A stretch of 64,000 nt of DNA from Antedon mediterranea (Eukaryota > Animalia > Echinodermata). The DNA is taken from contig NC_092678.1 of NCBI RefSeq assembly GCF_964355755.1, forward strand, positions 4,294,422 to 4,358,421, read 5' to 3'. The position numbers and the translations under genes were made by a program. Shown in pieces: positions 6,987-61,600 of this stretch. Every line of letters starts with the position of its first letter. Positions within the stretch are counted from its first letter, which is position 1. The notes beneath the pieces are model-generated. The model searched no databases. It was given only the letters and a program-made list of their open reading frames with translations, and was not told the origin of the DNA.

Positions 6987-7540
6987 AAGGAAATATGAAA
7001 TTGGTTGGAGTGGCATGAGAAACTCAATCCACAGATAAACAGGGGCACTTTTTTTATAACATTTTAAGTTCAACAAACAAGTTACTTTGACCTTGAAAAG
7101 AAAACCAGTGAACACATTCAACATCATGCTCTACTTTTTTTAACGAAAATAACATTTACTACACTCATGTGTTTTTGTAAAATTTTGACCTTTTCTAAAT
7201 CTTCAAAACACACTTAAATTTGCATTTTAAACTCACTATATTACATTAAGTATTCTGAAAAAACATGTCACAAGATAAAAACAAAATCACAAATCTATGA
7301 CAAGCTAATTTTCAGCATTTCTGAATAAAAATTTCCAAGTGGGCGTTAACATGTTTATTATTAAACTACACTAAGTTCATAGAAGATGGTGTTCACTTAT
7401 CTATGGAAATCTAGCAATCAATTAATTGAAGATAACTCATTACTACTACTTGAAGTAAATGTCAAGAAAACAAATTCATCAAAACAACTTGTTTTGCTAC
7501 TTAGCAAAATGCATACAAAATATAAGGTAGGTATTTTTCC

Positions 7541-8503
7541 ATGGGAGGAGGAGGGGTGTTGAATGGAGGAGGAGGGGTGTTGAATGGAGGAGGAGGGGTG
7601 TTGAATGGATGAGGAGGGGTGTTGAATGGATGAGGAGGGGTGTTGAATGGATGAGGAGGGGTGTTGAATGGAGGAGGAGGGGTGTTGAATGGAGGAGGAG
7701 GGGTGTTGAATGGAGGAGGAGGGGTGTTGAATGGAGGAGGAGGGGTGTTGAATGGAGGAGGAGGGGTGTTGAATGGATGAGGAGGGGTGTTGAATGGATG
7801 AGGAGGGGTGTTGAATGGAGGAGGAGGGGTGTTGAATGGAGGAGGAGGGGTGTTGAATGGAGGAGGAGGGGTGTTGAATGGAGGAGGAGGGGAGTTGAAT
7901 GGAGGAGGAGGGGAGTTGAATGGAGGAGGAGGGGAGTTGAATGGAGGAGGAGGGGTGTTGAATGGAGGAGGAGGGGTGTTGAATGGAGGAGGAGGGGTGT
8001 TGAATGGAGGAGGAGGGGTGTTGAATGGATGAGGAGGGGTGTTGAATGGATGAGGAGGGGTGTTGAATGGAGGAGGAGGGGTGTTGAATGGAGGAGGAGG
8101 GGTGTTGAATGGAGGAGGAGGGGTGTTGAATGGAGGAGGAGGGGTGTTGAATGGAGGAGGGGTGTTGAATGGATGAGGAAGGGTGTTGAATGGATGAGGA
8201 AGGGTGTTGAATGGAGGAGGAGGGGAGTTGAATGGAGGAGGAGGGGTGTTGAATGGAGGAGGAGGGGTGTTGAATGGATGAGGAGGGGTGTTGAATGGAG
8301 GAGGAGGGGTGTTGAATGGATGAGGAGGGGTGTTGAATGGAGGAGGAGGGGTGTTGAATGGAGGAGGAGGGGTGTTGAATGGAGGAGGAGGGGTGTTGAA
8401 GGGAGGAGAAGGGGTGTTGAATGGAGGAGGAGGGGTGTTGAATGGAGGAGGAGGGGTGTTGAATGGATGAGGAGGGGTGTTGAATGGAGGAGGAGGGGAG
8501 TTG
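7541..8503. repeat. 21-bp G-rich minisatellite (GGAGGAGGAGGGGTGTTGAAT)n, ~46 units
   Basis: Direct tandem repeat with few variants (GAT/GAG, GTG/GAG). Confidence 0.98.
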
Positions 8504-9398
8504 GATGAAGGTGAGGAAGTTGGATGAAGGAGTGGGATTCAAGGAAGGAGAGGGAGTTGGATGAAGGAGGGAGAGTTGGATGAAGGAGATGGGATTCAAG
8601 GAAGGAGAGGTAGTTGGATGAAGGAGAGAGGATTCAAGGAAGAAGAGGGAGTTGGATGAAGGATGGAGAGTTGGATGAAGGAGATGGGATTCAAGGAAGG
8701 AGAGGTAGTTGGATGAAGGGGATAGGATTCAAGGAAGGGGGGAGTTGGATGAAGGAGAGGTAGTTGGATGAAGGAGATGGGATTCAAGTAGGAAAGGTTG
8801 TTGGATGAAGGAGGAGAGATTCAAAGAATGAGAGAAAGTTGGATGAAGATGGGATTCAAAGAAGGAGAGGAAGTTGAATGAAGGACATGGGATTCAATGA
8901 AGGAGAGGTAGTTGGATGAAGGAGATTGGATTCAAGGAAGGAGAATGAAGGAGAGAGGATTCAAGGAAGAAGAGGGAGTTGGATGAAGGATGGAGAGTTG
9001 GATGAAGGAGATGGGATTCAAGGAAGGAGAGGTAGTTGGATGAAGGGGATGGGATTCAAGGAAGGGGGGGGGGAGTTGGATGAAGGAGAGGTAGTTGGAT
9101 GAAGGAGATGGGATTCAAGTAGGAGAGGTTGTTGGATGAAGGAGATGAGATTCAAAGAATGAGAGAAAGTTGGATGAAGATGGGATTCAAAGAAGGAGAG
9201 GAAGTTGAATGAAGGACATGGGATTCAATGAAGGAGAGGTAGTTGGATGAAGGAGATTGGATTCAAGGAAGGAGAATGAAGGAGATGGGATTCAATGAAG
9301 GAGAGGTAGTTGGATGAAGGAGATGGGATTCAAGATAGGAGAGGAAGTTGGATGAAGGAGTGGGATTCAAGGAAGGAGAGGGAGTTGGATAAAGGAGA
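8500..9398. repeat. Compound purine-rich satellite (GTTGGATGAAGGAGA / TGGGATTCAAGGAAGGAGAG modules)
   Basis: Alternating ~17-21-bp modules forming ~38-bp units; a ~330-bp block is duplicated. Confidence 0.93.
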
Positions 9399-9465
9399 TT
9401 TAATTTTTAATTCAATTTTTGTATATATAAAATGTAAACTCTGAAATGAAAAATGATTGACTTAC

Positions 9466-11482
9466 TTTCATGTTGAGACTGCAAATACTTATGTTATCGC
9501 CATCCTCGTTCCGCTTCCAACGACTTTTTGAAGGCTGAAACATAAATACAGATTTAGAGATGGTTACGGAATGCGCCAAATTTCTTTATCATGCATTTCA
9601 TTCTCTGCTACATTATATATACATCCATTTTTATCTTGTTATATAATATTTATTTGTTTAGTAAAATATGTGTGTATGTAAAAAGCCATATGAAGGATAA
9701 CATGAATGTTAATATCATTAAACGGTTCAATCATTTAACCTTTCATTACTGTACACAATGATCTAGAGTTCAAATGTGCACTTAATCATTTGACATTGCA
9801 CATAACAGTAAAGGTTTAAAGATTTGAAAAATGATATAAATGATATTAAAATGATATAATTAAATACTAAAATAAATAAAATAATAAATTGGGCATTACA
9901 AGGGTAATTCATCGCTCTCATACAAGAATAAGTATATTATTTTAGGTATAGTGACATTAAATAAGGCCAAGTACTGTAAAATTAGTTTCCTCATTCATCA
10001 AATTTTAGAGCCGCATGAACACTTTAATAAATAAATAATGTGAATGGCTGTACACATTTTCAATTGCGTATGCCCATATTTATCTTACTAATAGCCAAAT
10101 TGACTTGGCCTAATGTGACTATAGTTACTTACCTTTATGTTAAGACTACAAACACTAATATTATCATCATCACGATTACTTCTTTTTCTGGAAAATGACT
10201 ATAAAATAAATAAACTTTGTAAACTAATTAAAGAAAACAAATGATATTTGATCTAATAAAGAGAAAAAAATTACTAATAATTGTATACTAATACAGTACT
10301 AGTAAAATTAGGAACCAAGTTTGCTTTGAAATATTTTCTCAAAATTTTCTAAAAGTACATACCCCATATCGGAAGAAGCTACTTCCCTCTTCTTGTTTGG
10401 CTTTCTTCTGCAAAGAAAATACACATTTCTAAATAACAAATACAAAGTGGGGCACCACTAACTAAGGTTACATTTTCCGTGAAACGAACAATAGGTAATA
10501 TATGAGTCCTAATAGTGTAAGCCTTGTGATGTGCCCATATATGGACAGGATGATGTCATATTACTACCATATATGGAGATATCACTTCCACATTAGGGGA
10601 TATCGCTACCATATTAGGGGATATCAATACCATATATGGGTATGTTTGATAGTGTAGAAAGAGCTTAAAACTATAATATCTTTGTAAGACGGTTAAACTT
10701 GAATTGTTCATATCAAGTCCTGACCTGTTGGTTTGCTCCTGATGGACTATCACAGATATCAGGCTGATCTTCCCGTTTTCTTTTCCGATCCTAAGAAAAA
10801 GAAACAAACATTAAGTTCAATGAATAGGAAATCTAAACTTGTCAGATTTATTGTAACATTTAGTTAAGTAAAAATAAAGCAAAGCAAACTAAACAACTCA
10901 TAATCTGGTTGGAAAAAATTTGGGAATGTCCCACCCATTTCCGTCCATTCGACAAAATGATCTTACCCTCAAATCCATACTATGAACGCTGGGGCTGCGT
11001 TCTTTGAATGAATCTAGACTCTTTCTTTTCATCGCTGGTTTGGTTTTCTTTTCCACTGTGTTCTGAGTTTCTTGCTGTTTTTGAATGTCCTGTTGCCATT
11101 GGTAATGCTCTTCTCTTCGTTTCTTCATGTACTCAAGTCTATCCTTTCTGTTTTTTTCTTCCTTTGCTCTTTTCTTTTTCCGTGGCTGAAAATTAAGTTA
11201 AAAATATACTTAAAATTAGCACAATCTGGCAATAACACATGGTTTTCTTTCCAATTTTATTAAATAAGTTGATATATTTTTATCACTATTTTTGTCTCAC
11301 TTAAAAAGAATTAGTTCTTCTGATTCTACATTCCATTTTGTACTTACTGGTGGTATAGGACACACATCTTTCTCATTGTTGGTAACTGGTGAGCCATGTA
11401 GCGATGAATGAGAACCTCGGGAAGACATGGACCATAGAGAAGCTCGCGACGATGAAGGTTTCAGTGATGTCCGTTTTGACAT
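9466..11482 (-). CDS. Unidentified multi-exon charged/low-complexity protein (>=200 aa, last exon not located)
   Basis: Six GT-AG exons joined in phase 0: 11482-11348, 11185-10967, 10790-10725, 10407-10363, 10198-10133, 9534-9466, giving MSKRTSLKPSSSRASLWS...PRKKKRAKEEKNRKDRLEY...DRKRKREDQP...KKAKQEEGSSFFRYG SFSRKRSNRDDDNISVCSLNIK PSKSRWKRNEDGDNISICSLNMK. In-frame stop just upstream of the ATG. Confidence 0.7.
10525..10665. mobile_element. MITE family A copy (intronic, partial)
   Basis: GTGCCCATATATGGAC...21-bp units...GTTTGATAGTGTAGAAAGAGCT terminus. Confidence 0.75.
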
Positions 11483-42677: not shown

Positions 42678-44106
42678 ACATTTGTATTTTAAATATACTG
42701 GTATTTAACCAGAACAAGTGTATACACTAGGCCTATTGTAAGACGGGTAATTATGTCTATCTAAACAAGAAATATTTCTCGCTTATTGAAAAATATTTTT
42801 TATTTCAAATGTTTTCAAATGTATCATTTTATTGTCACATAGGCCTAATAGTTATTTTACCTGAAAAAATGTAGGAAATTTAAAGCAACAAATACTTAAA
42901 TTGTCTGTCAGACAATGGTTTTTGGGGTTTCTTTTCTATTTTTATTATGTGAATAAATATTATTTTTTTGTTACAGAAGTGAATACTCAACTTTCTGTTA
43001 ATTTTATTGCTAAGGTACGTCAAGTCTGGGGGTCACTTCATCACCCTAGATATTTCAAGTGTGAAGTATCCTATTACAAACACAAACTTTAATGGACTTT
43101 CGATAAAAATTCAATGAATAGGCTATCTGACAGTGAATTACAGTCAAAAGTCAGTATTACAGTCAAATGGGAGTCATAAATACCAGAAATGCTTTGTTGG
43201 GATTTGTAATTTTAGCATGACATGTCCTAATCCTCTTTTCCCAGACGTTTTGGGTCTAGCAGCTGGAAATCTATAAATTATAGTGGAGTTTCCATTTTCG
43301 CAAAGTCGTCCTTAGAACTATAACTGCTGCTTGCTTTAGCTTCTGATTGAGTAGTCCTAATGGGACGTAGCGGGATAGAGCAGAAGCGTAAAAAAAAATC
43401 TAGAATTCCGAACAAAATATCACGAATGGGGTGGGGGGGGGGGGGGGGGGAGAGAATAATGGAGGATATGAACCTGTGATTGGTGGGATATGGCGGATAT
43501 GGGGTTAAGGTTCATTCTTATTACAAATCATCACCGCGACACGAGGCTAGGCTGTGTTGACAAAGCACGTTAAAAAATCAACTTATAGTATGCGCCGTCT
43601 ATAATTGTTCTGCTGCGCGTAGAAAAAATTAGGCCCCTTGTTATAAAATAAAAAAGTAGGTGTGCTATAAAACAAATAATGCATGTTTTATATTCATGTA
43701 ATTGATCAAATAATTTAGTTCGATAAAAGATAAACTGTTCTATTTTCACCTCATTACATTATTTGTACCATTGTATTCATAAACAATCTGTTTTTGTATA
43801 TTTATTAATATCGCAAAATATGAATATGTGAACAGATTTAATAAATACTCATATAGCGCCCTCACCCTTAGTAATGAGGTTGTTGTTGACGATACGTCTC
43901 CGAGTCCGAATTGTTGTGTTTTTGTGAGCTCTCTGATCGTCGCGCTGCAGGTCTAGGCCTAGACTAGTAGGCCTCTTTAGTATAGTACATTTCAATTCAT
44001 TTTAGGGCTACATTACGTATGACAACAAAGCACAGCTTATGTCAAAATGAATATTAAGCACAATGTTGAAAAATGCTGCCTAGAACTGTCATAGAGAGAT
44101 GATTGC

Positions 44107-47100
44107 ATGGCGCGAAATGGGCTAGCCTCTGTGTCGAAACGCAACCTGAAGCTTGAGAATTTCCTGAAGGTGAACTTAGCCCAGGATGTCTTTGACCGCG
44201 TACAGGCCTACGAAGCCTGTATTGTAAACTCCGCAAAAGAAAAAAAGGCTTTTAAATTTAAATATGCAGTTCTTGGGGATGAACGCCTGTATATTACAGA
44301 AAATCCACCAAAAGTTATTAAAGAAGAAGAAAGCTTACACCTTCAAGATGTAATTGCCATAACATTGGTAAGAAAGTAAATTGTTTGTTTTTGTTTGTTT
44401 GTACAGTAACTGTACTGCTGTAGTCTGTAGGCCTAGTTGATGTGTGAACAACAATATTATGCCTAATAATAAAATGTGGTTTGTAGTTTGGATATGTTAG
44501 GCCTAGTTAGTTAGTAGGCGTTTTTGCTATCTAATCTAAAGTTGATTGCAAGTTGAAGAATTTATTTTTGAAAAATTACTAAATAAATTAAGCACTCAAT
44601 TAACAATCGCTATATTATTTCTTTTTTGATAATAATGTTTCTCTTATTGGTATTAATAAATTAAATAAAATAATATGTATAATATATAAATCCAAAGGCA
44701 AATTACTGAAAAAAATGACAATTCTGTGGGTATCAGGGGCTGGATCTCAATGGAGATACAAAAAAAAAAGCGAAAAGCTAAATCAAAACGATAAAGTAAA
44801 CAGCCAGAAAAGTTAGCAGAGCTTTCGGGCAACACTAGCCCTTCATCAGTGCAATATATATATATATATATATATAAATCAAAATAAAAAACCTGTTTGG
44901 AAAAACAGTGACATTTTGCACCTCCCCACAGCAAATTCAAAACTACAGTAAAGTATCAACTGAATTTTGTCTAAAGCTATTAATTGTTTTGATGAATGTT
45001 GGTTAGCTTTTCACTATATTGCTTCTCAGGGTCAACAAGTTTAACCTCCAATGTGAACAATTGATGATTCTTGTTGCTATTGATATTTTTATGATGTAGT
45101 TGGCCTTTAATTAATTGATTTTCTCCTAGTAGTATGCTACCGCGCCTAAAAATTTATAGTATTTTTGTTTTACAATAATCACCATGGTAGTGCCAGTAGA
45201 CTGAATGAATGCCTTTATGTAACTGTCACTAAATATAATTACAAGGTTAAGTATAGTCTTTTGATTAGCTCCATAGATGCGTATAAAACAACCTTTCTAG
45301 AGTTTTGTCAATGGGATTAAAATTTGATACGTTTCAGTGCAAACTAATACAGATGTTGTCAATTTGTAATACAGTAGATTACAACACACATTGTTACAAG
45401 TTAATAAATTAAAGTAACTACTAGTGTAAAAAAATAGCAGGTTGTTGTTGGTCTCTATGGTGATAGCAAACGAGATTAGTAACTATTTCTGCCATTCAAA
45501 TCATTCTTTTTAGTAGTTTGCTATAAAGCTTGGTTCCCACTAGAGACGCAACGCAAGGACGTAGACGCAAGAGAGTTAACCAATGACAAGCGACAGTTCG
45601 AATAATCCATCGCTTGTGATTGGTCAAATCACTTAGGTTGCGTTACGTCCTTGTCTTGTGTCTCAAGTGGGAACCAAGCATAATGGCTCAAAGTGGGTGT
45701 GTTTGCTATTTGATACTACATTTACTCAGTTATTATTAATAATATACTAGAAATTGCAAAATATAATTATAATAACTGGAGTTCTCACTAGAAGTTAAAG
45801 CTTGTCTCTTAAAGATCCCAATTACGGACTCAACAGTATAGCAAAAGTATGAATAAAATTTACAATCTAAAAAAAAGTGCAAGATACTCATTTATTTAAA
45901 ATATTTGAGCTAAAGCACTGTGGAGCAAACTATAGTTTGCACTTTTATTCAATTGGTACACAATCTTTCACTTTTTAAAAATATTTAGGTAAATGATTTT
46001 CCAGACTTCTTGAGCGGTGAGGAGCGTGAAAATGCCCAGCACATTTTGATAAAACATTTGCAGGAAAAGTCTATTCCTAAGACACGAAAGAAAAATGTAA
46101 AGAAAGACTCAAACCAGGAAAAGCAAAACGGTAGAAACACACCAGAACTTTGCGTTTCCGATCCTTCTGGGAAAAAATTCCACAGAGATGAATCGGATGT
46201 TGAAGAAGAAGAGAAGAATGGTAGTGGCTTACATCTTAACAGAAGTTTTGATGAATCCGCCCTCTACATGTTAAAACTGGAGGATGAAGTTTCATCCGAA
46301 GGGGAAGATCAATTATCAGTATCACTACCAACCTCCTCATTTAAGACACTCTCAAGTGACCAAAAGTCTGGAAAAGATGAATCAACTTTAAAGTCATCAA
46401 AGCTAACTAAATCATTGGTAGAAAGTGTTGGAACATGTCGTCCTTTACCTCAAAGACCTTTACATAACAAAGACTCAGCCCCACGTCTAGATGTTTCCAG
46501 CACATTTTCAACAGACATTGCTTCAACTTTGGTTAATAGAGACAAAAATTCCAATAAAAAATTACAAATGCGCAACCTTCCCTCACCAGACAGTCCTAAC
46601 AACAAGAAAAAATCAATGCCTTTCAAATTCAATTTGGATGCATCACAATCTAAAGAAACTCTAACAAAGAAAAATTGTGATGGTAATACTAAAAGCCGAC
46701 AGAAAAAAGTGGTACCAAAACAGAGAAGCTTAGATATTGAGATAAGCACTAATGATTCATCTGTGACAACAGAAGAGTTGGAAGATACGACGTTTGTGAA
46801 AGAAGAAGTTGAGACACATCTCTACATTTTGTCACCGTCTTCTACATTTCTCATGCAGTTTCAAAGTACATGGAACAATTACATTATTGTAAGTTTTTTT
46901 TTCTTATTTTTTGGTGTTCAACACGTGACCATAATATTCTAGTATAAGTCAGTCATTCATCATACATAAAATTACAAATACGGTACTTTTTATTTTCAAG
47001 CTAAAAGTATCAAATTCTCAAAATACAGTAAAGTCCTTGATAACCAGAGTAAAGCATTATTTAATTAAATTGTTTAATATATTACAGTTTACGCTATAAT

Positions 47101-50100
47101 GTATTCTATTGTGCTGGTGTGAACCAATGAAAAATCAAGATATTCTCCTCTTTTATGCTGTAATTTATTTATTTGTTCCAACAATAATTTACGAAGGTGG
47201 TCCATCCAGCCGAAGCTGATCATTAGGGACTCTCACAAAAATACAATATGACTATAAACATGCAAAAATTAATATACAGTAAGATATAAAATAAAATAAA
47301 CAATCAAAAAATAGAATCCTTTACAAAAGTCTGCACAATATTTTATCTATTTAAATTATTACAGTACAATACAACTAAAGATATTACACGCTAATAAATG
47401 AACAATTTACTGTACAGCTGAAATGATTGAAAATGATATCATTAAGCTTACTCGGAATAACATCCACTGTTTAGACAACATTCAAGCGTACTACTAGTAA
47501 TACATCATCATTATTACAATAAGGCTGTAAAGAATGAATGTACGATGGCCATCACATTTTGTGTTTCCTTACATCAAGTGTATATTTCCCCAGCCCATAT
47601 AGCTAGTTTTAAATCAGTATGTTGCAATATCATTCTTTAGGTTCAGGTAAGTCTACTCTCATCACTAGCGTACATAAAGATTAACCCTGTAACCACAGTC
47701 TTGACTGATTTCGGTCATGTATTGCTCATTCAAATTTTATAATTATTAAAATTTTTCCAAATTTGATTTCTTTAGCGATCAACAAGAATGTTGGAAAATG
47801 CGGAGTCCGCTGGAAATTCTCTGAAAAAGCCATCAGGTTCTACCAGGTACAGTATATCATAGAGTACTATGTATAAACACAACGAATGTACATTGTGATA
47901 GCTTCTGCATCCACCACCCTACTGTCACAATTTCCATAATTGTCACAATTTTAATCTATCCTAATTTATAATATATTTATGACTCAAATTGGTTTATAAT
48001 GTTATCTGTTTCTTTTGTGTCATCACCTGCCATTTAATACAATATTAATCATTTTTCAAAAGAGTACGTGATACTACTGTAAGTAATAACTTATAAAAGA
48101 TATTTGTGTTATTAATGGATACTACTGTAGTAATCTGATTTCCAAAAGGGAATACAAAGTATGGTTTAGAAAGTTTCAACATTCCAGTTGCTACATCTTC
48201 TGGAGTAAAGTTGACGCAAATAGAAAACATAATCAAGTTTATAAAAAGGTTTAAAGCTAAGTCCAAATATGGTAGTGATATTCCCAAATATGGTAGTGAT
48301 ATGACATCATCATGTCCATATATGGGCACATTACATTTTTGGTCACAAAAAGTTTGATAGTGTATACAGAGTTTAACAAAAATTTGATGAATTCATCGTC
48401 CCAAGATACTGTAACCATCCAGGCATTTTACTTCTTTTCAGGTAATGTCATGGTAGCTACTGTATATAAAGATAACATGAAAGAATATACAGTTATTATT
48501 ATATATTAATAAAGGTTATTATGGTAATATAAATAATAAAATGAGTTTAATTCATTCAATAGACATGGCCATGTGGTTTTAATACACTTTTTTGATATTA
48601 TAGTTATTGAATATAATGAATAAATATTGAACAATAAATTAAGTATGGTACGGTACGGTAATCAATAAGAAGACCAATGCCCTCTAGCAAGTTTTGACAT
48701 TTTGTGGTTATTATATAAAATATTAAATTTTGAATATTCTGTTATCTGACATAATTACATTCTGTTCATAAAAGCTTTCCGTAAAGTAGCAAATTTTAAT
48801 ATTCATACAGGGGAATCTATGAATTGAAAAATATATATATTTTTTTAAATGTTCACGTAAAGATTGAATCACTTATCCTTAGTTAGTACTTTTAAATTAA
48901 ATACTTTTAAAAATGAATGAAAAATATTATGTTGTTCATAACAGCCTTTTTTTGTATGAAAATTGAGATTGTTTGCGCAAAGTGTTTGATTACATTATGT
49001 GTTTTTGACCGACGTTTTAAGATTTACCGAAGCCATGGTGATTGAACAACATAGCATGAGAGAGACAAAAGCTTATTTCTTTAGAACATTGTTGAGGAGT
49101 GAATTTGGTAGCTCTTTGGGGAAAACCGTGTTCGAAGCAAATAATGGATGTGAATCAACTCTGTAGGGAAAACAGCACTTTATAATAATATAATATGGAC
49201 AGGTTTTGTTCAGTAATTACAGTACAATCTTCCACTTATCAATCGATCATTTGTCTTTTAACTGTCGTTCGTGAACAAACTGTAGATGTAGAACAACAAG
49301 CTAGTGAAAAAATTAAAATGCATTCTTATAAACAAAAAAAAATAAATTAGACATTTTATAATACTCTACATTTCATTTAATCTTCCACCTCCAAAAATGA
49401 CTAACATTTAGACCTATTCTATCTTTTCTTCATTGTATGTAGTGCCTGGTATGTTTAATCCCCCCCCCCCCCCCCCCACTTTTAAATTAAGTACAGTGTA
49501 ACCTTCTCATGTCTAAAACACAGACTGAAATATCTATATTGCCTCTCATCCAATCATCAATGGTGTTAGCTTATCATTATCATACTTTAAACAAAGTTTA
49601 TCGGGCAGACGGGCTAAATGTAAATAATATTTTGGAAAATCATGAGGACTAAGTTCATGTTTAAGTTACTGTAGCTCTGTAGCATATCATGGTATTTCCT
49701 AATAGAAGTAGATAAAGTTAGCAATACAGTGTAATTAATTTTTTATGTTTGTTAAAGATGTATTGTCCCCCAAAAACATGAAAAATGAAGATTAATTAAA
49801 TTAGACTTTGAATATGTTATTTTGTAGTTTTAATCAAGTTAATCACTTCCATAGAAAAAAAAAGATTTTTTTTCACTTATGAAATGACAAAATAAATGGT
49901 TAAATTCAACCAAAAATCCATTGGCTGGCAGCCAATTTGACCATTTTTTGCTTTAAATTACATTTTTCTCTGGTAAATACATTTTTTTTTCGATACAATT
50001 TTTGGTCAAAGTGGATAACTATTATGTTACATTAAAATGGAATATTCAGCAAAAATTTTTTTAAGAATTATTTTTTTCAAGGGGACAATACATCTTTAAT

Positions 50101-53100
50101 ACTATTATTTTTTTTGGTCAAATTTCAAAACTAACTCATAAAAATAGATTTCTTTTATCATTTACTTTTAATTATGTTCTTAAATTACAATAACATGTCA
50201 TCATTCAATGTAATTAATATTTCAAATTTTAATTTAATTTCATGCTTCTTCATTGGTCAATATAAATCACCTTGGTAACATCATAACATCTTTTTCATCG
50301 TGATTCCAGTCCAGTAAGATTTGATAGGTATGGCATTTCTTCATTAATCAAAGAGGTTAAATAATATACTAGAGTGTGAACTAGTCAACAACGAAGTGAT
50401 ACCAACACGACAGAGACTCCTTTAAAATGGCTGCCTTACAATATATCTGTTTCAAACATTATTTAATAATAATGACCTAAAATATTACGAAGAATGATGC
50501 AGCCATATTGTATGTTTCAGCTGTGATTAAATTGGAGTTTAGACTCTAGTTTATTATTTTAACCTCTTTGTCTTCATTAACTCTCACATTTTAATTAAGG
50601 CGAAACATTAACAATATGTGTCATTAGTTTCAAACTCCAGAAACTTCAAGTGCTTCATGTCATTCAGAATACTAAGTCATCATAAAATCTCATTAACATA
50701 TTTCAAGTGTTTTCTAAAAATACTGTACTACTGTAGTATTTCATCAATTTTATATAATTTTCTTCACTTTTGTACAAGTTTTCAAATAAAGTTTGCTAAT
50801 TCTATGATTATCCAGACCTTGTTTAAAACTTTTAAAATCTATGTTATTATATCTAATCTAATGTTATAAGGCCGTGCTAGGTTATAAGATAAATAATGTG
50901 ACAGAGTCATGACTTGAACACAGGCTCCACTTACTTACAGAGCTCAGTTGCAGCGCCAGTTTCAACAGATGAAGGAAGAGATACTAAATGCAACTAACGA
51001 CATTGAGAAGTTGTTTGAATTGGTTGCAGAACTTGGAACGGCTGCAGCCAAGTACTTTATTGTTAAAAAGCTCTTCTGGAAGGTAATTTTATGGCAACCC
51101 ATTCAAACCATGTGCCATATACTTAAATTAAATTTACAACCATGGGGTGGTTTCCCAAAAATTTCGTATTTGAAACTTTTTTAAATGAAATTATTAACAT
51201 TTTGACCTTGAATTAAGAATTATATGCTGATATTTGTATCGAAGTTCAACAAAATTAAATTTGAATATTGTCCTGTTTATTGCCTTCATAATACATTTAG
51301 CATAATAAACTGTAATTTATTCTTCCATTTTTTCAACTCATAATTTAAATAATTTTTATCTTCGTAGAGCGTTGATCTCTTTGAGTTTTTTGTCAATAAA
51401 TTACAGTGTTATCTTCCAAAGTCAACTTCTAGTGATGCACATTCTAGAGCTGATGAACTAGAGTAAGACTTCATTTTATTTTGTATCATATATTCTTCAC
51501 AAAATATTTACGATGTATAAATCTACGATACAATGTGCTGTATTGTATGCTGCATATGAATTATGTTTGTACATCATTTATCTATGGCACAGATACATAA
51601 TTATATTCGGCTCCTATAGAATATTTGAAATTCAATATAGTAATCCATAAACTCCATTAGAGTTATATTCTTAATGTTGATCAATAAAATGTACATTCTT
51701 GCCTTCTATGAAAATAAGAATAAGCAGAAGTACTTTTTATGATATAATAATATTTATTCTGCTGCGCTGCAAGTTGAACAAACATTATTCACCAGGAGCA
51801 AACAAAATGCAGAGACAAATCAGAATAACTTTCTCCAACATTAATACCAATAAAATACATTGAATGTAGTAATAAAAATATTGTTACCGTTATGTGATAA
51901 ATCTAAGCACAGATACCTCCATTCAATATGAATATAATATTAATATACATCTGTTATTATCTGAATGTTGTACAATAGAGTGATGAGTCATACAGTAGCT
52001 TTTGCTTTTCCATAATGATAATATTAAATGGAGTTTATGTTTGTAATTTATCTGATTTTGTAGACAATTTTCTTTGACTATTAGAAGATTTAAATCAACT
52101 TTTTTTTTTTAAAGGATGGTTGTGATTATTTTCAACACTCTGGCACAAATGTTACGGGAAACTGAGATGCTACCTGATCGACTAAAAACGCTACAAGCAA
52201 ATAAGTAAATACTGAGTTACAAAAATATAACCCTTGTAAATCTCCTATATTATCAAACTGTGCCCGATGAGTACTCCCTGGCTATGTCCGATGAACACAC
52301 TGAATACCCACCCTGTACTCCATGGTCACTCCCTGAAATCCACGCCTTCTGGCAACTGTATGTCCCATGAGAACACTAAATGCTCACCTATACCCCATGG
52401 GCACTCCCTGAAAGCCACGCCTTCTGGCTATGTCCGATGAGCACACTTCATATCTCTAGATCTACCAATGATATCGCTTACTCGTAGATTCAAATGTATT
52501 TTTATTTATGAAATAATAATTTCTTTTTGATACAGTGGCAAGATGGTCCTTGATCTACTGGTGATGTTGACATGTTTGCCTGAGGTTCCACAAAGATGGC
52601 GCCCTCCAAGTTTCAAGATGTCCAATACGCTACTAGAGACTGATGCTCACCACTGGGAGACTTATTCGGATGCTGAGGTAGTTTTTTGTTGTTTGCTAAA
52701 CAATTCAAGAAATCTTTATTATCAAATTGAAAGACATATTATGGTAATAATTTTCTTTTTATTGTAGATTTCTAAGCTTGTGCAGGAGATCACCAACATA
52801 TCCACTGCTGTCACTTTTGAACTAATACTGATAGCACTTCAGGTGAGTTATGGGTTTATCTTTCCAAAATCATCATAATTTTCTCAAGATTTTTTTATCT
52901 GAAAATGACACACAACCACTCTGTTCCACATAGTCTTTAATTTTAGAGTTTATATTTTTTTTTATCTTGTTTCAGGCTAACTGGGGAAATGATGAAGGAA
53001 AATTCTTCAACATTTGTTGGCTTGTAAAGGTTCTAGATACATTTTCAACAACTGTAAGTTTTTTGTACACAATACTCTCAACTTTTGCACAATCCTTAGG

Positions 53101-53653
53101 CAAGCCCAAAAAGGACTTTATGTTTTTTTTTATTGTTTCTTTCCATATGTATTTAAAGAAAATGGAAGTAAGTTCTGGTATTTTTGGAGAGTAACGGTTG
53201 GCCACATTACACAATTACGCATAGGAATATTTATTTTCCACCTTGTATGGTTACATACTGCAAGTAAGCAGTGATTGGCTATACCATTCGTTGAATTAAT
53301 TCATGTTGAGTCTCATCCTGGTTTTTTTAAAGGAAAAATTTGTGGAAAGGTTGTTGGCACAGGCTATGAAGCTACTGCTACCATCCAAGGATTCAGTCAT
53401 ATCTCCTGATGACGCTGTCCTTCTGTTCCAGCAGTTCTTTGTCTTGCAGACCTTGATAGAGTACAGTTCCAGTATAATATCCCATATCAGGAACAATTAC
53501 ATGGAAGAATTCCGGTACTATGTGCAGTCGCCTCACATACTGGTGAAGTTCCCGGCTAACTATCCAATTAGGAGGATGACGCTACAGATTATAGATGAAG
53601 TTCTGTCCTGCGTACTGCAAAAGAACACAGTGTTGAAAGGCCATAAGGTGTAA
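44107..53653 (+). CDS. C12orf56: C12orf56 (DUF4551) homolog, ~10 exons
   Basis: KRNLKLENFLK..VQAYEACIV..KYAVLGDERLYITENPPK..DVIAITLVNDFPDFLSGEERENAQHI and C-terminal NNYMEEFRYYV..YPI match C12orf56. Exons ~44107-44367, 45989-46888, 47776-47845, 50942-51082, 51368-51462, 52116-52204, 52536-52677, 52768-52842, 52977-53053, 53333-53653. Confidence 0.9.
44685..44854 (-). mobile_element. Penelope-like pseudo-LTR repeat, copy 2 (intact hammerhead), inserted in (TA)n
   Basis: Reverse complement of copy 1; flanked by TA microsatellites in C12orf56 intron 1. Confidence 0.78.
44816..44852 (-). ncRNA. Minimal type I hammerhead ribozyme motif (Penelope type)
   Basis: GCA-CTGATGA-A-GGGC-TAGTGTT-GCCC-GAAA-GC-TC-TGC: full core, stem II, palindromic AGCT in place of stem III, 3-bp stem I. 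Confidence 0.75.
45527..45680. mobile_element. Harbinger-like MITE, 154 bp
   Basis: TIR GCTTGGTTCCCACT / AGTGGGAACCAAGC, TAA flanks, largely palindromic body. Confidence 0.85.
47160..47330 (-). mobile_element. Probable LINE 3' tail remnant
   Basis: Minus strand CAGC-TTCG-GCTG hairpin followed by an (AAAT)n tail. Confidence 0.35.
48258..48374. mobile_element. MITE family A copy (right half)
   Basis: CCAAATATGGTAGTGATAT x2...GTTTGATAGTGTATACAGAG. Confidence 0.78.
49756..50095. mobile_element. Kolobok-like MITE (family B) complete copy, 340 bp
   Basis: TIR AGATGTATTGTCCCC / GGGGACAATACATCT with TTAA on both flanks; AG terminus argues against piggyBac. Confidence 0.88.
52258..52450. repeat. 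Short ~85-90-bp tandem duplication in a C12orf56 intron
   Basis: CCATGG(T/G)CACTCCCTGAAA(T/G)CCACGCCTTCTGGC twice; TATGTCCGATGA-like motif three times. Confidence 0.7.
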
Positions 53654-54335
53654 CACATCACATTTCTGATCTGTAAATGCAACAATAAAACTAAACTGAA
53701 ACTAAAGTCTAGCTATTTCGTTTGGTCATAGAAAGGTGATAAATGATGGGGAAAGGTCCATCATTTAATGGTGAGATTCAATTTGCACCCCATTCTCTGT
53801 ACTGCTCTGTACTTTCAATGACAAATTTAAGTCGTTTATTTTTATTTACATCTTTAAATGTTTTGTATACAATGTTATGCAACTAGATTGACTCTTTTGT
53901 ATCTATATTTACTTAAAAACAAGACTTGGTGGTGAAAGTCAAACAAGTTTTTTATTTAGAATTAGGAAGAATTTTATTCAAATAATATTAAAATATAAAT
54001 TTTATTTATGCATTGCCTAATTTGCCTAATTTAAATCTTGCTTTCATTCATTGAAAATGTGCAAAATATTATATATTATAATTATCTTTAATTCTTTTTT
54101 GTATGTAATGTTTATTTTTTCTCATCAATTTCTTTCATATGTGTTTGTGGTTGAGTGCAGCAAAGATTAAATATACTTTGTTATTTTTTGGGGGGTTTTC
54201 AAATGTGTAAATACGAATATTAGGGCCAACAAGAAATGGACCAAACTGTTTACATTCTATTAATAAAAGATGGTATAAGGATTGCACTCATGTTGGTGTT
54301 CTCCGTCAGGAACACAACGACAAGTTCTTCTGTAA

Positions 54336-54603
54336 AGCCTGGTTTCCATTAAAATCGCTACAGCGTTTCCATTAAAATCGCTACACGCGCAGATGTCGCC
54401 GACACAATCGGGAAGGCTCCCCGATTCATCGCAGTCAAATCGGCAAAGTTCAACCATGTTCAACTTTGCCGATTTTGTCGGCGATGAATCGTATACGCGT
54501 ACCAAAGAATATTTAGCGCTCTCATACTAGATCCCCGATAAATTCTAGCGTTTCCATAGAATCGCTACGCTCTGTCGTGTAGCGATTTTATGGAAACCAG
54601 GCT
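54336..54603. mobile_element. Harbinger-like MITE, 268 bp
   Basis: TIR AGCCTGGTTTCCAT(T)AAAATCGCTACA / TGTAGCGATTTTATGGAAACCAGGCT, TAA on both flanks. Confidence 0.9.
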
Positions 54604-55239: not shown

Positions 55240-55340
55240 TATACACTATCAAAAAAGTGTGACGTGCCCAAATATGCTGGTGATATGACATCATCATGTC
55301 CATATATTTCGAATACAATTTGATAGTTTAGACAGAGTTT
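55240..55340. mobile_element. MITE family A short copy
   Basis: TACACTATCAAA...GTGCCCAAATATGCTGGTGATATGACATCATCATGTCC...TTTGATAGTTTAGACAGAG. Confidence 0.72.
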
Positions 55341-56650: not shown

Positions 56651-58382
56651 ATGGATAAAGAAATACGTGATCCTTCAGCAGAACTGGTGAAGTCGCTGGA
56701 AAAGTTGAATATCGTGCCATTTAGAAGCACTTCTCAGTTTGATTTGAGAGTGGATTTGAATTATCGACACTTACAGAAGCTGCCTGCTGATGTCTGCAGA
56801 CTGACAGACCTTCAGTGGTTAAATTTAAATGTCAATAGGCTGTTTGATCTTCCAGATGAACTTCAGCAACTTGTTAGATTAAGATGGTTGTATTTAGAAA
56901 GTAACAAGTTCGAACATTTCCCAAGAATTCTTTGCAAAGTTCCGTCTCTTGTCCGTTTATATTTCAGCAGTAATGCCCTGTCAACTCTTCCAACTGATGT
57001 GAAAGATCTCAGATGTCTAAGACTCTTGGATCTTTCAGACAATAATTTTAAAGATTTTCCCTCTGCAATATGCTGCTCAGAATTAAAACTTCTTGACAAA
57101 CTGTTTATAGATAACAATCAATTGAAGTGTATTCCATCTGAGATCAGTAAGTTAATTGGACTTAAGTCACTCTGGATGAATAACAATCAAATAGAATGGC
57201 TTCCGCAAAGCACAGCTGAGCTGGTGAATCTCGAGGAACTTCAGATTAAAAATAACAGTCTTCACGGCTTGCCAGCATACCTTGCCCCCGGATTAAACAA
57301 ACTTACTTCGATAGAATGGGAGGGTAACAGATTAACTCTAGCACTACGAGGACCTATTTCCCGTGGTGTCGGTGATCTTAGACAATACCAGATATGGGCT
57401 AGAGAGATGGCGTTGTCAAAAGAGATGGTTGAATTTCGGAGCAATCGAGAGTCAGGGATGGAGCGTCCATGCTATAGGATGCGAACGAGACCCAGGGGTG
57501 TGGCCGTTATCATAGATAATTTTCCAGCAGAAGACATTAATGAGGACAATAGTGAAACAGGTAAGAGGATCTGGGTGACATTTTGTTAATATGGAGGCGG
57601 TGGATGTCACATGTCGTATTCTGAGCGAAAGACCTCCTACTATTTTTTGAGAACTATGTATTTCTTTAAAGTAATGCAATTTTATTGTTATCTAATTTAT
57701 TTTCACAGACAAGCTTCGAAGTGTTCTGATAAAACTAGGATTCAACGTTCGTATAATGAAGGGATTGATATCCCTCGATATCATATCCGCTCTTCGTTTT
57801 ATATCGATGGAAGATCATCGCTATGTTGACTGTATCGTTGTTGTTCTCCTCTCGAAGGGGTCGAGTAATGCAGGAAATGTCCGAGGCAATGATGCCATCA
57901 AAGTAGAAATACGGCAACTCACAGACATCTTCACCGCTGCCAACTGCCCGACACTCGCAGGAAAACCGAAACTGTTCTTCTTGCAATTGCTAGAAGATAA
58001 AACAATGAAATCAGTTGGGAAGAAAGACAATGATTCTTCTTCTAAAAGTGATAGCTTAAAAGATCTAATACCAGATGAAGAAGATTTTTTGTTGACCGTG
58101 GCAGGTATCCCGCATACGATGTTACATGAATCAAAGACGAGAGCGTATACACTGTACGTTTCGTTATTGTTTGACATTCTGGAAAATTACGCACGTAAAT
58201 TGAACTTATTAGATTTGCTGGCTACGGTACATTCTCAAGTTAGTAATATCCAACTTACTACTGATATAACAACACAAAATGTGTGCCATAATGAAGCCCG
58301 AATTGTACCGTTTATTCAATCATCGCTACGATATAACCTCTACTTAAGCATTTACAATAGTACTAGAGAAAACACCAAGTAA
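56651..58382 (+). CDS. Leucine-rich repeat protein fused to a catalytically inactive caspase (peptidase C14) domain, 2 exons, 527 aa
   Basis: Exon 1 56651-57560, GT-AG intron 57561-57708 (phase 1), exon 2 57709-58382. About nine LxxLxLxxNxL repeats, then CYRMRTRPRGVAVIIDN..DKLRSVLIKLGFNV..DCIVVVLLSKG..NCPTLAGKPKLFFLQLLED..IPDEEDFL..SSLRYNLYL. Confidence 0.9.
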
Positions 58383-58699: not shown

Positions 58700-61600
58700 A
58701 TGGAAGACAAATTTCTAGATTTGCAACAGCAAATGCGCCACAATCAGGAAGATCTCAAAGACTTCCTTCGTGATTTAGATAATTGGGAGGATACTATAAA
58801 AGAAAAAGATATTGAATTACAGACAGGAAGCTCTACAAAACAACAAGTAAGTCTAGGCCTATTAATACTCTGCTGGCATTATTTTTGCCATGACGACAGA
58901 CGCTGTCCGCTGGGCGGGCTTGTGATGTCAGTATTATGCTATATGTAGGCCTAGCCCTGGGGCCTACGTTTAGACCTAGGTCTGCTCTTTCTATCATTCA
59001 GTTTAATAGTCCTACAACTTGACATGGCTTATCTTATTTAGTATTTATATTTTCTTGTCCCCCCACTTTACTTACATTACAGATAAAGTATGTCTCGGTT
59101 TTGTACTAAAAACTAAATCGTATTAATAATATTATAATATTCTTTTTATAGAAATTGCCACCAGTTCGTAATAAAGTAAAGGAAAAGCCAAAACGAAAGA
59201 AAGATCAATCCAAAGCAGCAACAAATACGAAGGAGGAGGCAGACTCATCTTCAGTCAAACAACAAAGAATCAAGGCCTATGACTACAGAAAATGGGATAC
59301 ATTTGATGTTGTAGGTGAAATTAGAGTACTGTTGCATTTAATAAATTATATAATTTATGCAACAAACCTTATATTTAACCAGTATTTTTAAATCTTTAAC
59401 CAGTATTTTTAAATCTTTATTACACTCTTTAATATTATTAATGTTTTTTATAATTGTTTTCTCTAAAGGAAAAAGCTTGCGCTGAAGTTGAAAGTGGAGG
59501 AGAAGAAAATAGGGTTAGTTCGGAATATGAAACAGACAGCGACGAAGAAAGAAAGGAAAATGCTAGACAGCAGAAAATGATGCAAGCTAATATGGAAAAA
59601 GAAAAGGTTTGTTTAGCTGGATAATTTCATTCTTTTAGTAAACAATTTTATATTTGTTTTTGATTGATATAGAGATCTGGTTGGTCAATAGTTTTCATTA
59701 AATAGTGTTTTCTTTTTTTGGGTATTCCAAGTCTCGACTATGAAATAGTAAAGTGCCTATCAGAGAAGTCTGGAGAGCTTGTTTGTGTATAATAGTCAAT
59801 CATCTAATCTACCATTACTTATATTACATTATATTGTTTAAGGTTTGGTACTAATATATGTGGTGTACCACAAACTTTATATATCAACATTATATGACAT
59901 TGTCATTAATAAAGTTATTTGGTATTTTAAGGGAAATGACTTTTTCAAGAAAGGCCAGTTTGATGAAGCTGTGTTGTGTTACACCAGAGGAATGGAAGCA
60001 GATAATACTAATGCAATCCTACCAGCTAATAGAGCTATGGCTTTGTTAAAACTTAAAAGGTGAGTTCCACCATACATTAGTCAATAGTATGACCTTGGTA
60101 ATACTGTCTCTGGTATTGATAAAGGCTTTACCAAAGCCTACAAGATTCATACAATGTGACGTTATTATATTATATGGTAATTACTGTTAAAGCTTCATGT
60201 GTTTGAATATACCTACAGATGCACTACATTAAAATGTTGATTAATTAAATAATATACTTTATTTTGACAGATTTGAGGAGGCAGAGAGTGACTGTAGTCT
60301 GGCGTTATCCCTAGATTGCACTTATGTAAAAGCAGTTTGTAGAAGAGCATCAGCAAGGCTAGGCCTAGGAAAACTTAGTGAAGCAAAGCAAGGTATATAA
60401 TGCACTTCACTGTCAAATCATGTTTGGGGTTGTGCTAGGGTGTACTCCTCATTGGCTGGAAGAACAAAGAATTTATATATGAATATTTGTTCATTCATTT
60501 TCTTTTTCTAGACTTTGAACAAGTACTTTTATTAGAACCTTCTAATAAACTCGCAAAAACAGAACTTAAAAAGATTGGAAAGTTGGAGAAGGACGAAGAA
60601 GATAAACACAATTCAGCACCAACAAATAGAATATATGCAGTTGACAAACCACCTCATTTAAGGTCAAAGGTGAGATAAAAAGTGTTAAGTGTTTTTCTCC
60701 ATGAGTAACTCAGCTGCAGCACTTAGCGAAATTAGTCACAGCTCTTTCAATTATTGCATTCTGATAGTGTGTTACCAATTTTACATTTTTAATTAGTAAT
60801 GACACACTGTTTGATGTTTTAACAGAAACCATTAAAGAGGATTCATATAGAGGAGATTGGGACAAATAAAGAGGAGAATATAGATATTGAATCTACAGCA
60901 ATGGAAACAAAAGATGATCAGCAAAAAGTACCCAAAGAAACAGAAATATCAACAGATACAGAAACACATGAAAAGAGAGTGAATGCTGACACATCTGAAA
61001 AATCACAATTGTAAGATCAAATAGAGTGTTCTTTATATGCTATATATATTATGTTAAAATGTTTAGAATTTTTTTTTTGGTGTTCTATAACTATTTAAAA
61101 TTGCACTAGAATCAAAACAGTTCTTAGATAAACATATTCTACATGTTTTTTTATATAAAATTTTGCAGAGACAAAACAAAGACAGCCTCAGAAGTTGTAA
61201 CAGCTGATGTTCCAGTAATTACTCCCCCTCCCTCTGTTCCCCCCTCACCTCAATCTTCTTACCACCTTCTTGCTGATTGGAAACGGCTTGAAAAATATCC
61301 AACACAACTTGTTCAATATTTTAAAGTAAGTTTAATAAATATTCCAATATATTGCTGAGATAACTGATTACTGTGTTACATATTGTATTTACTAAATTGT
61401 ACAAATTTCTTGAATTTTAAAGTTAGTACCAATCTTCTTTCAGTAAATATTGATAAAACACTTATTTTTTTTCACCAGCAAATTAATCCAGAGACATATC
61501 CATCATTATTCAAGCAATCCATGGATTCTGATGTGTTATCGAAAATTCTAATATTACTACATAATCATTATATTCCGTAAGTTCTTTCGATGTTTTCACT

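Follow-up and report, generated by a model that had tools for sequence, protein, structure and literature searches.

Analysis of a 64,000-nucleotide stretch of the genome of the feather star Antedon mediterranea (contig NC_092678.1, positions 4,294,422 to 4,358,421; hereafter the window) revealed a forward-strand gene whose product joins an array of leucine-rich repeats (LRRs) to a complete caspase-8-like domain without catalytic residues. The coding sequence (56651-57560 joined to 57709-58382; 1584 nucleotides) encodes 527 amino acids with a single stop codon at its end. Each of the five echinoderm classes was found to have proteins of the same architecture, as was the hemichordate Ptychodera flava. 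Judged by sequence comparison, the conserved fold, the loss of the active site across orthologs and the constraint on the sequence identify the protein as a pseudoprotease, and in this dead family the LRR-caspase architecture is combined with the principle of the pseudo-caspase, both of them already known. With regard to function, we give roughly even chances to the proposal that these proteins are FLIP-like regulators of caspase-8-type enzymes, recruited by a host partner and evolved independently, with a dimer that is predicted by analogy.

The two exons were clearly distinguished by their domain content. Exon 2 matched Peptidase_C14 (PF00656) with an E-value of 2.3e-26 and 93.4 bits against a curated cut-off of 21.4, and exon 1 matched only LRR families in Pfam (LRR_8, E-value of 8.5e-21), with no DED. 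The caspase-8-like domain spans 57461-58349 (+; residues 271-517) and contains the intron. Within this domain, SKG at 57852-57860 replaces the SHG motif of the catalytic histidine, placing K353 at a position occupied by K, T, R, Y, Q or H in relatives, and QLLED at 57984-57998 replaces QACxG, placing L398 at the catalytic cysteine; both replacements lie where the first-pass annotation, made by a model from the DNA letters, had located them. It had also suspected the loss of both arginines of the Asp-binding S1 pocket, and an alignment with 36 intact caspases confirmed this. In particular, the RxGxxxD motif (first S1 Arg) is lost from loop L1 (57524-57559, +), which varies in length and sequence within the dead family, and the SxR motif (second S1 Arg) is replaced by LHE at 58122-58130, a loss found in all dead members aligned. 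The comparison caspases (36/36) all have the G, D and R of these motifs, and the nine dead rows of the alignment have lost both arginine motifs together with the intersubunit Asp.

To what extent these losses are common to relatives is evident from the database searches. A search of longer proteins with exon 2 gave 19 matches, ten of which were LRR plus caspase proteins of 527-568 residues from crinoids, sea stars, a brittle star, sea urchins, a sea cucumber and one contig without a name. A profile search (120 matches listed of 304) added P0036 from Ptychodera flava and three fragments corresponding to exon 1 only, and a cluster look-up added LOC100893970 of Strongylocentrotus purpuratus. In one case (P0008), the fusion is an unbroken frame of 568 residues on a 2162-nucleotide Logan contig. 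The catalytic Cys was absent from all 22 full-length proteins, a set that includes near-identical pairs, with Leu in 21/21 echinoderm-type proteins and Asn in Ptychodera. The catalytic His was kept in 8/22 and was otherwise K, T, R, Y or Q. The frame is open in all family proteins, and identity across classes reaches 69% in the structured parts. Because the Cys is absent from every full-length protein and the His is kept in eight, these sequences point to an old, selected pseudoenzyme rather than to decay; on this comparison the enzyme died once, long ago, and the His drifted later. The first-pass annotation had favored a selected pseudoenzyme over recent decay, and the spliced joint, the S1 and Cys losses common to the family and the conservation agree with it, as does the finding that the orthologs do not all retain His and Cys. 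Its statement that every active-site residue was lost holds for Antedon mediterranea but not for the family, where the common losses are the Cys and both Arg. Each species had one or two near-identical records, and no expansion was seen among the matches listed, although no whole genome was searched.

To our knowledge, FLIP of vertebrates is the main source of what is known about pseudo-caspases in animals. The present family is a second old pseudo-caspase of probable caspase-8-like lineage, kept in echinoderms and a hemichordate, groups that split more than 500 million years ago. The survival of intact hemichordate relatives provides a natural before-and-after pair for the change from protease to regulator, and sea urchins (Strongylocentrotus LOC100893970) and sea stars are models in which the family can be tested directly. 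The orthologs carry database labels as different as caspase-2-like, caspase-7-like, caspase-8-like, RGA4 and PHLPP2-like, and because of such labels, echinoderm caspase counts and expression studies may include a protein that is no enzyme as though it were one.

This is a real, spliced gene. Coding exon 1 (56651-57560, +) encodes an N-terminal helix, nine LRRs, a cap, a linker and the start of the caspase domain (residues 1-303 plus one nucleotide), and its length of 910 nucleotides produces a phase-1 junction. The 148-nucleotide GT-AG intron (57561-57708, +) has the borders CAG/GTAAGA ... TTTTCACAG/AC, its donor being strong and its acceptor rich in pyrimidines, and coding exon 2 (57709-58382, +) encodes the remainder of the caspase-like domain through the stop codon. 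The proposal that two open reading frames join through a canonical phase-1 intron into one protein of 527 residues was verified by the frame, by the identical database protein P0001 (XP_071960765.1, Antedon mediterranea) and by a 1582-nucleotide contig of sequencing run X1 that omits exactly the intron. Run X1 is RNA by guess, as its record carries no RNA label, and it represents one study and contigs only. It showed three further GT..AG joints, all in introns of neighboring genes, and five coding differences from the window, of which four are synonymous. Additionally, read-through fragments from relatives end at the matching intron place. A contig across the 57560/57709 junction, of the kind that the annotation had called for, was thus found in run X1, whereas none of the three other runs (X2-X4, all from one sample) showed these joints, and their contigs read through the intron. 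Among the 20 splice pairs listed, the 19 others also keep the frame open, but a strong donor together with support from reads is seen for 57560/57709 alone.

An AlphaFold2 model built from 21 rows (predicted local distance difference test score, pLDDT, 79; predicted template modeling score, pTM, 0.77) showed a complete caspase fold preceded by nine LRR strands and a helical cap, with a linker that forms an ordered hairpin; the active-site loops L1, L2 and L4 were poorly defined. The LRR array (56741-57334, +; residues 31-228) comprises nine repeats of 23 residues, one of 25; the earlier estimate of about nine agrees with the nine strands of the model, and a strict motif detects seven. The helical C-cap and short linker (57335-57460, +) are ordered in the model, with the hairpin at residues 260-275. 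The presence of complete large and small subunits, another early claim, was supported by the alignment of model residues 271-518 to 3h13_A and 4jj7_A. Caspase-8 ranked first among solved structures both by profile and by Foldseek, and c-FLIP, caspase-8 and caspase-9 were tied in a VIA-align comparison of the caspase domain (Z-scores of 25.0, 24.7 and 24.2). The c-FLIP domain 3h13_A gave a root mean square deviation (rmsd) of 2.4 over 204 aligned residues at the Z-score of 25.0, and 4jj7_A an rmsd of 2.6 over 210. The LRR portion matched Rsu1, SDS22 and SHOC2 among others, which are generic LRR matches. The ESM Atlas gave no usable feature match, its structure matches being generic LRR clusters, and the 50 rows of a viral fold search named no LRR-caspase, only generic LRR proteins and one ascovirus caspase. 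The model of the intact hemichordate sister described below had a similar pLDDT of 78.7 with a pTM of 0.48 and a disordered linker, and the linker of the dead form is about 26 residues shorter. By rough arithmetic, a pTM of about 0.5 is expected without a fixed domain orientation and about 0.76 at an inter-domain error of 5 Å. The modeling predicts that the LRR and the caspase domain form a rigid unit in the dead form, and they probably pack through the α1-β2-α2 face, a contact face assigned from its conservation.

We found that conservation is concentrated on two surfaces. In the seven central repeats, exposed positions of the LRR concave face had an identity of 0.69 across echinoderm classes versus 0.31 for the convex face (28 versus 56 positions, which are not independent and were compared without a control on a true sensor family). 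Within LRR 1-3 (56741-56947, +), repeats 1-2 expose on their concave face the residues RDNY and WNNV, which do not vary in the 11/11 sequences shown, including that of Ptychodera. TLR, NLR and VLR sensors have a variable concave face and gene expansion, and the dead family does not show a variable concave face; these values do not support the earlier description of the array as sensor-type. Such conservation is easier to reconcile with a partner that stays the same than with a pathogen that changes, and the concave face of LRR 1-3 is likely a binding site for a conserved partner. The second surface is α1-β2-α2 (57560-57827, +; residues 304-343, intron inside), which is conserved specifically in the dead family, with an identity of 0.84 across classes (25 pairs) versus 0.36 in mollusc caspase-8 (10 pairs) and 0.38 in vertebrate caspase-8 (6 pairs); the intact sister pair had 0.65. 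In contrast, the substrate loop L3 had an identity of only 0.37 in the dead family versus 0.82 in mollusc and 0.43 in vertebrate caspase-8, so that the conservation pattern is inverted relative to caspase-8. The helix α5 and strand β6 (58191-58346, +), which we take to be the caspase dimer face, are conserved and carry the invariant dead-family changes ARKLN, H478 and Y512. The identity of β6 was 0.65 versus 0.68 and 0.75 in the caspase-8 groups, and that of α4-α5 was 0.64 versus 0.61 and 0.67.

To trace the origin of the family, a caspase-domain profile was compared with representatives at 50% identity, and the best 150 of 4842 matches were examined. Eight of these carry an LRR array; two are dead and six have SHG and QACQ(G/N). 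All six intact LRR-caspases are from hemichordates (Ptychodera, three; Glandiceps, two; Saccoglossus, one), and further members of the intact group are P0295, P0296 and the full-length Saccoglossus protein P0399. The P0295 model has an insertion within QACQN that is probably a retained intron. No intact LRR-caspase outside hemichordates appeared among the best 150 of 4842 or in a second search (120 of 289), and no amphioxus one was among the rows listed. The caspase-domain tree contained 45 chosen rows, as 20 of the 65 extracted were dropped (fragments, near-copies and multi-piece domains). In this tree the dead family formed one group (100/97), sister to P0162 and P0295 (95/66, unstarred; 83/30 without four long rows). 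The nearest database and PDB relatives are caspase-8 proteins; the trees hold few caspase-2, caspase-9 and caspase-3 rows, and their deep branches are poorly fixed. When LRR profiles were compared, the dead family and the intact P0162, P0295 and P0296 were reciprocal best matches among 151 LRR proteins (158-166 bits versus at most 127 for the next; in reverse, 128-168 versus at most 108), and both groups have the 25-residue repeat in the same register. On the basis of these profiles, the common repeat and the caspase-tree grouping, we infer that the dead family arose by duplication of an intact LRR-caspase before the echinoderm/hemichordate split. A Saccoglossus fragment ends at the same intron place as the dead family, but caspase-8 genes may share that place, so it is not diagnostic. 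A quick tree of LRRs only was weak (SH-aLRT of 85 for dead family, sister and one long row; 40 for all LRR-caspases versus 20 generic LRRs). A loss of the intact LRR-caspase in echinoderms is only suggested by these searches.

The intact hemichordate LRR-caspases (P0162 from Glandiceps, P0295 from Ptychodera and P0399 from Saccoglossus; P0156, P0233, P0269, P0186 and P0188) have the same architecture, 25-residue repeat register and intron place as the dead family, whereas they keep the His, QACQ(N/G) and both Arg and have a longer, disordered linker. The concave-face residues also differ, as the intact sister has its own conserved set (EIRG/KSQG) in place of RDNY/WNNV. These intact proteins fall in at least three tree groups, and no paper on them was found in the literature searched. 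Amphioxus LRRs-caspase proteins were described by Zhang et al. in 2008, all with QACXG according to the accessible text (PMC2575513), and have the LRR array directly N-terminal to the caspase domain, as in the dead family, which has lost that motif; this comparison follows the published description, without an amphioxus sequence. The first-pass statement that animal caspases do not use LRRs is contradicted by these amphioxus proteins and by the intact ones of three hemichordate genera. The same text proposes a shortcut from pathogen recognition to apoptosis, and the part seen contains no test of it. In the literature searched, the only other match to the LRR-caspase pairing was an unrelated genetics paper.

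The closest parallel for the proposed function is c-FLIP(L)/CFLAR. According to the accessible parts of PMC7586951, the dead domain of FLIP(L) pairs with caspase-8 and can block or promote its activation, FLIP(L) is cleaved at Asp376, and FLIP is recruited beside caspase-8 via DED. Like the dead family, c-FLIP(L) has a caspase-8-like fold without the catalytic dyad and evolved fast after duplication, and 3h13 is a tied best fold match. In c-FLIP(L), however, tandem DEDs precede the domain, Cys has become Tyr and His has become Arg, whereas the dead family has LRRs, Leu for Cys and a variable His. The two are probably of independent origin, because a grouping of the dead family with vertebrate caspase-8/10 was rejected in an approximately unbiased (AU) test (p-AU of 0.015; no FLIP row and a long dead branch). 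Rsu1, SHOC2 and SDS22 have a similar intracellular arc of 23-residue LRRs with a conserved concave face, but none has a caspase domain, and PIDD is an LRR protein that activates caspase-2 in trans and likewise has no caspase domain. No paper on the dead family was found in the literature searched, where most subscription journals are uncovered and a mention in an echinoderm caspase survey is possible, and six ortholog identifiers were absent from the same literature. The accessible parts of PMC2246300, PMC10959488 and PMC12409990 do not describe the family, and the 2023 study among them reports no caspase-2 in Ambulacraria in the portion available (PMC10959488).

In the proposed FLIP-like regulation, a conserved host protein would be bound by the LRR. 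Pairing of the dead caspase domain, either with an enzyme of caspase-8 type or with a second copy of itself, would follow and would set caspase activity, by damping or promoting it. A heterodimer with an active caspase is plausible by analogy. In favor of the FLIP-like reading, the segments at the dimer face are conserved to a degree comparable with that in the caspase-8 groups, and c-FLIP 3h13 is among the tied best fold matches. More tentatively, and short of an even chance, an LRR-caspase-8 duplicate may have died in the echinoderm/hemichordate ancestor, locked its LRR on the caspase helix face, outlived its active echinoderm sister, and may now link a conserved host signal to caspase-8 activation, as a second control point of FLIP-like kind that evolved independently. 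Several observations weigh against the FLIP-like interpretation. Dimer-face residues that hardly vary in intact caspases are replaced (N by H478, K by Y512 and Q by I502), changes that a homodimer or a partner other than a caspase might accommodate better, and the strongest conservation sits away from the dimer face. The intersubunit Asp present in 33/36 comparison caspases is not conserved, while FLIP(L) undergoes cleavage at Asp376, and there is no DED of the kind that recruits FLIP. The sister grouping in the caspase tree, although likely, is unstarred, and a grouping of the dead family with two intact echinoderm caspases (a Patiria DED caspase and an Amphiura kinase-caspase) was not rejected (p-AU of 0.09). 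No intact LRR-caspase was found in echinoderms among the matches listed in either search, the second of which missed three of its own four query proteins. Furthermore, the pTM contrast is confounded, since the two alignments differ in the number of close rows, and the Atlas model of P0001 has a pTM of 0.50.

Some of these points would be better accommodated by a caspase-independent scaffold that would have left the caspase pathway, a rigid LRR adaptor that, like Rsu1, SHOC2 and SDS22, would hold conserved host proteins and in which the dead fold would provide a second binding face, perhaps as a homodimer. We regard this close rival as somewhat less likely than the FLIP-like regulator. The generic fold matches to these adaptors, the peak of conservation on the LRR concave face and α1-β2-α2, the invariant, family-specific changes of the dimer face, the missing DED and cleavage Asp, and the lack of an intact echinoderm LRR-caspase among the matches listed are all in keeping with it; a dimer face and core as conserved as in working caspase-8 proteins are not, and the known animal pseudo-caspase of caspase-8 lineage acts via its active paralog, according to the text seen (PMC7586951). 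A pathogen-sensing decoy, with an LRR that would bind a microbial ligand and gate the caspase, is unlikely. A conserved face can also belong to a receptor whose microbial ligand does not vary, and a shortcut from recognition to apoptosis has been proposed for the amphioxus proteins (PMC2575513); yet the concave residues of repeats 1-2 are invariant from crinoids to the hemichordate, and the matches listed contain no expansion beyond the one or two nearly identical records of each species.

It is very improbable that protease activity persists or has been relocated. The His kept in 8/22 proteins and a Cys at column 349, two positions ahead of the SxG motif region (16/18), could be taken to suggest it, but the column of this Cys belongs to a core strand and holds Val in Antedon mediterranea, the His gives way freely to K, T, R, Y and Q, and both S1 Arg are gone. 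We attach almost no weight to a decaying gene or a gene-model artefact. The uncertain nature of run X1, RNA only by guess and from contigs of one study, would allow for it, whereas the same fusion recurs in named gene models from each of the five classes and from Ptychodera and is unbroken on the Logan contig, and the identity across classes, the splice joint and the loss of Cys in 22/22 all speak against it. The FLIP-like regulator remains the reading that we put forward, at the even chances given above.

Additional features were observed in the window. Directly upstream of the gene lies a multi-exon DUF4551 (PF15087) gene (44095-54360, +; matches at 44095-44376, 45989-46939 and 53300-53650), which is spliced and covered in run X1. 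A downstream gene (58700-60000, +) begins 318 nucleotides past the stop codon and has run X1 joints at 58846/59152, 59310/59469 and 59603/59929; its N-terminus presumably resembles RPAP3, and its exon 1 had no match in Pfam. Short interspersed repeats at 54350-54600, 55240-55310 and 59850-59882 showed very high summed depth in all four runs. A G-rich tandem repeat occupies 7421-10000, with a GC skew of 0.76 in 8001-10000 and long low-complexity open frames.

Other caspase genes were encountered in the searches. Four Ptychodera proteins, P0036 (dead), P0186 (intact LRR-caspase), P0158 (related, without LRR) and P0187 (DED caspase-8), have the same length of 44,037,996 bases recorded for their longest contig, and their genes are probably on one chromosome. 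Caspase fusions with a kinase (P0337, Amphiura), with PF04598, which we take to be gasdermin (P0325, Dreissena), and with ankyrin (P0013, Schistosoma) were also seen and may be gene-model artefacts. Finally, P0151, P0155, P0157, P0160, P0183 and P0278 contain two or three caspase domains, one without the catalytic Cys motif, and possibly represent built-in pseudo-caspases.
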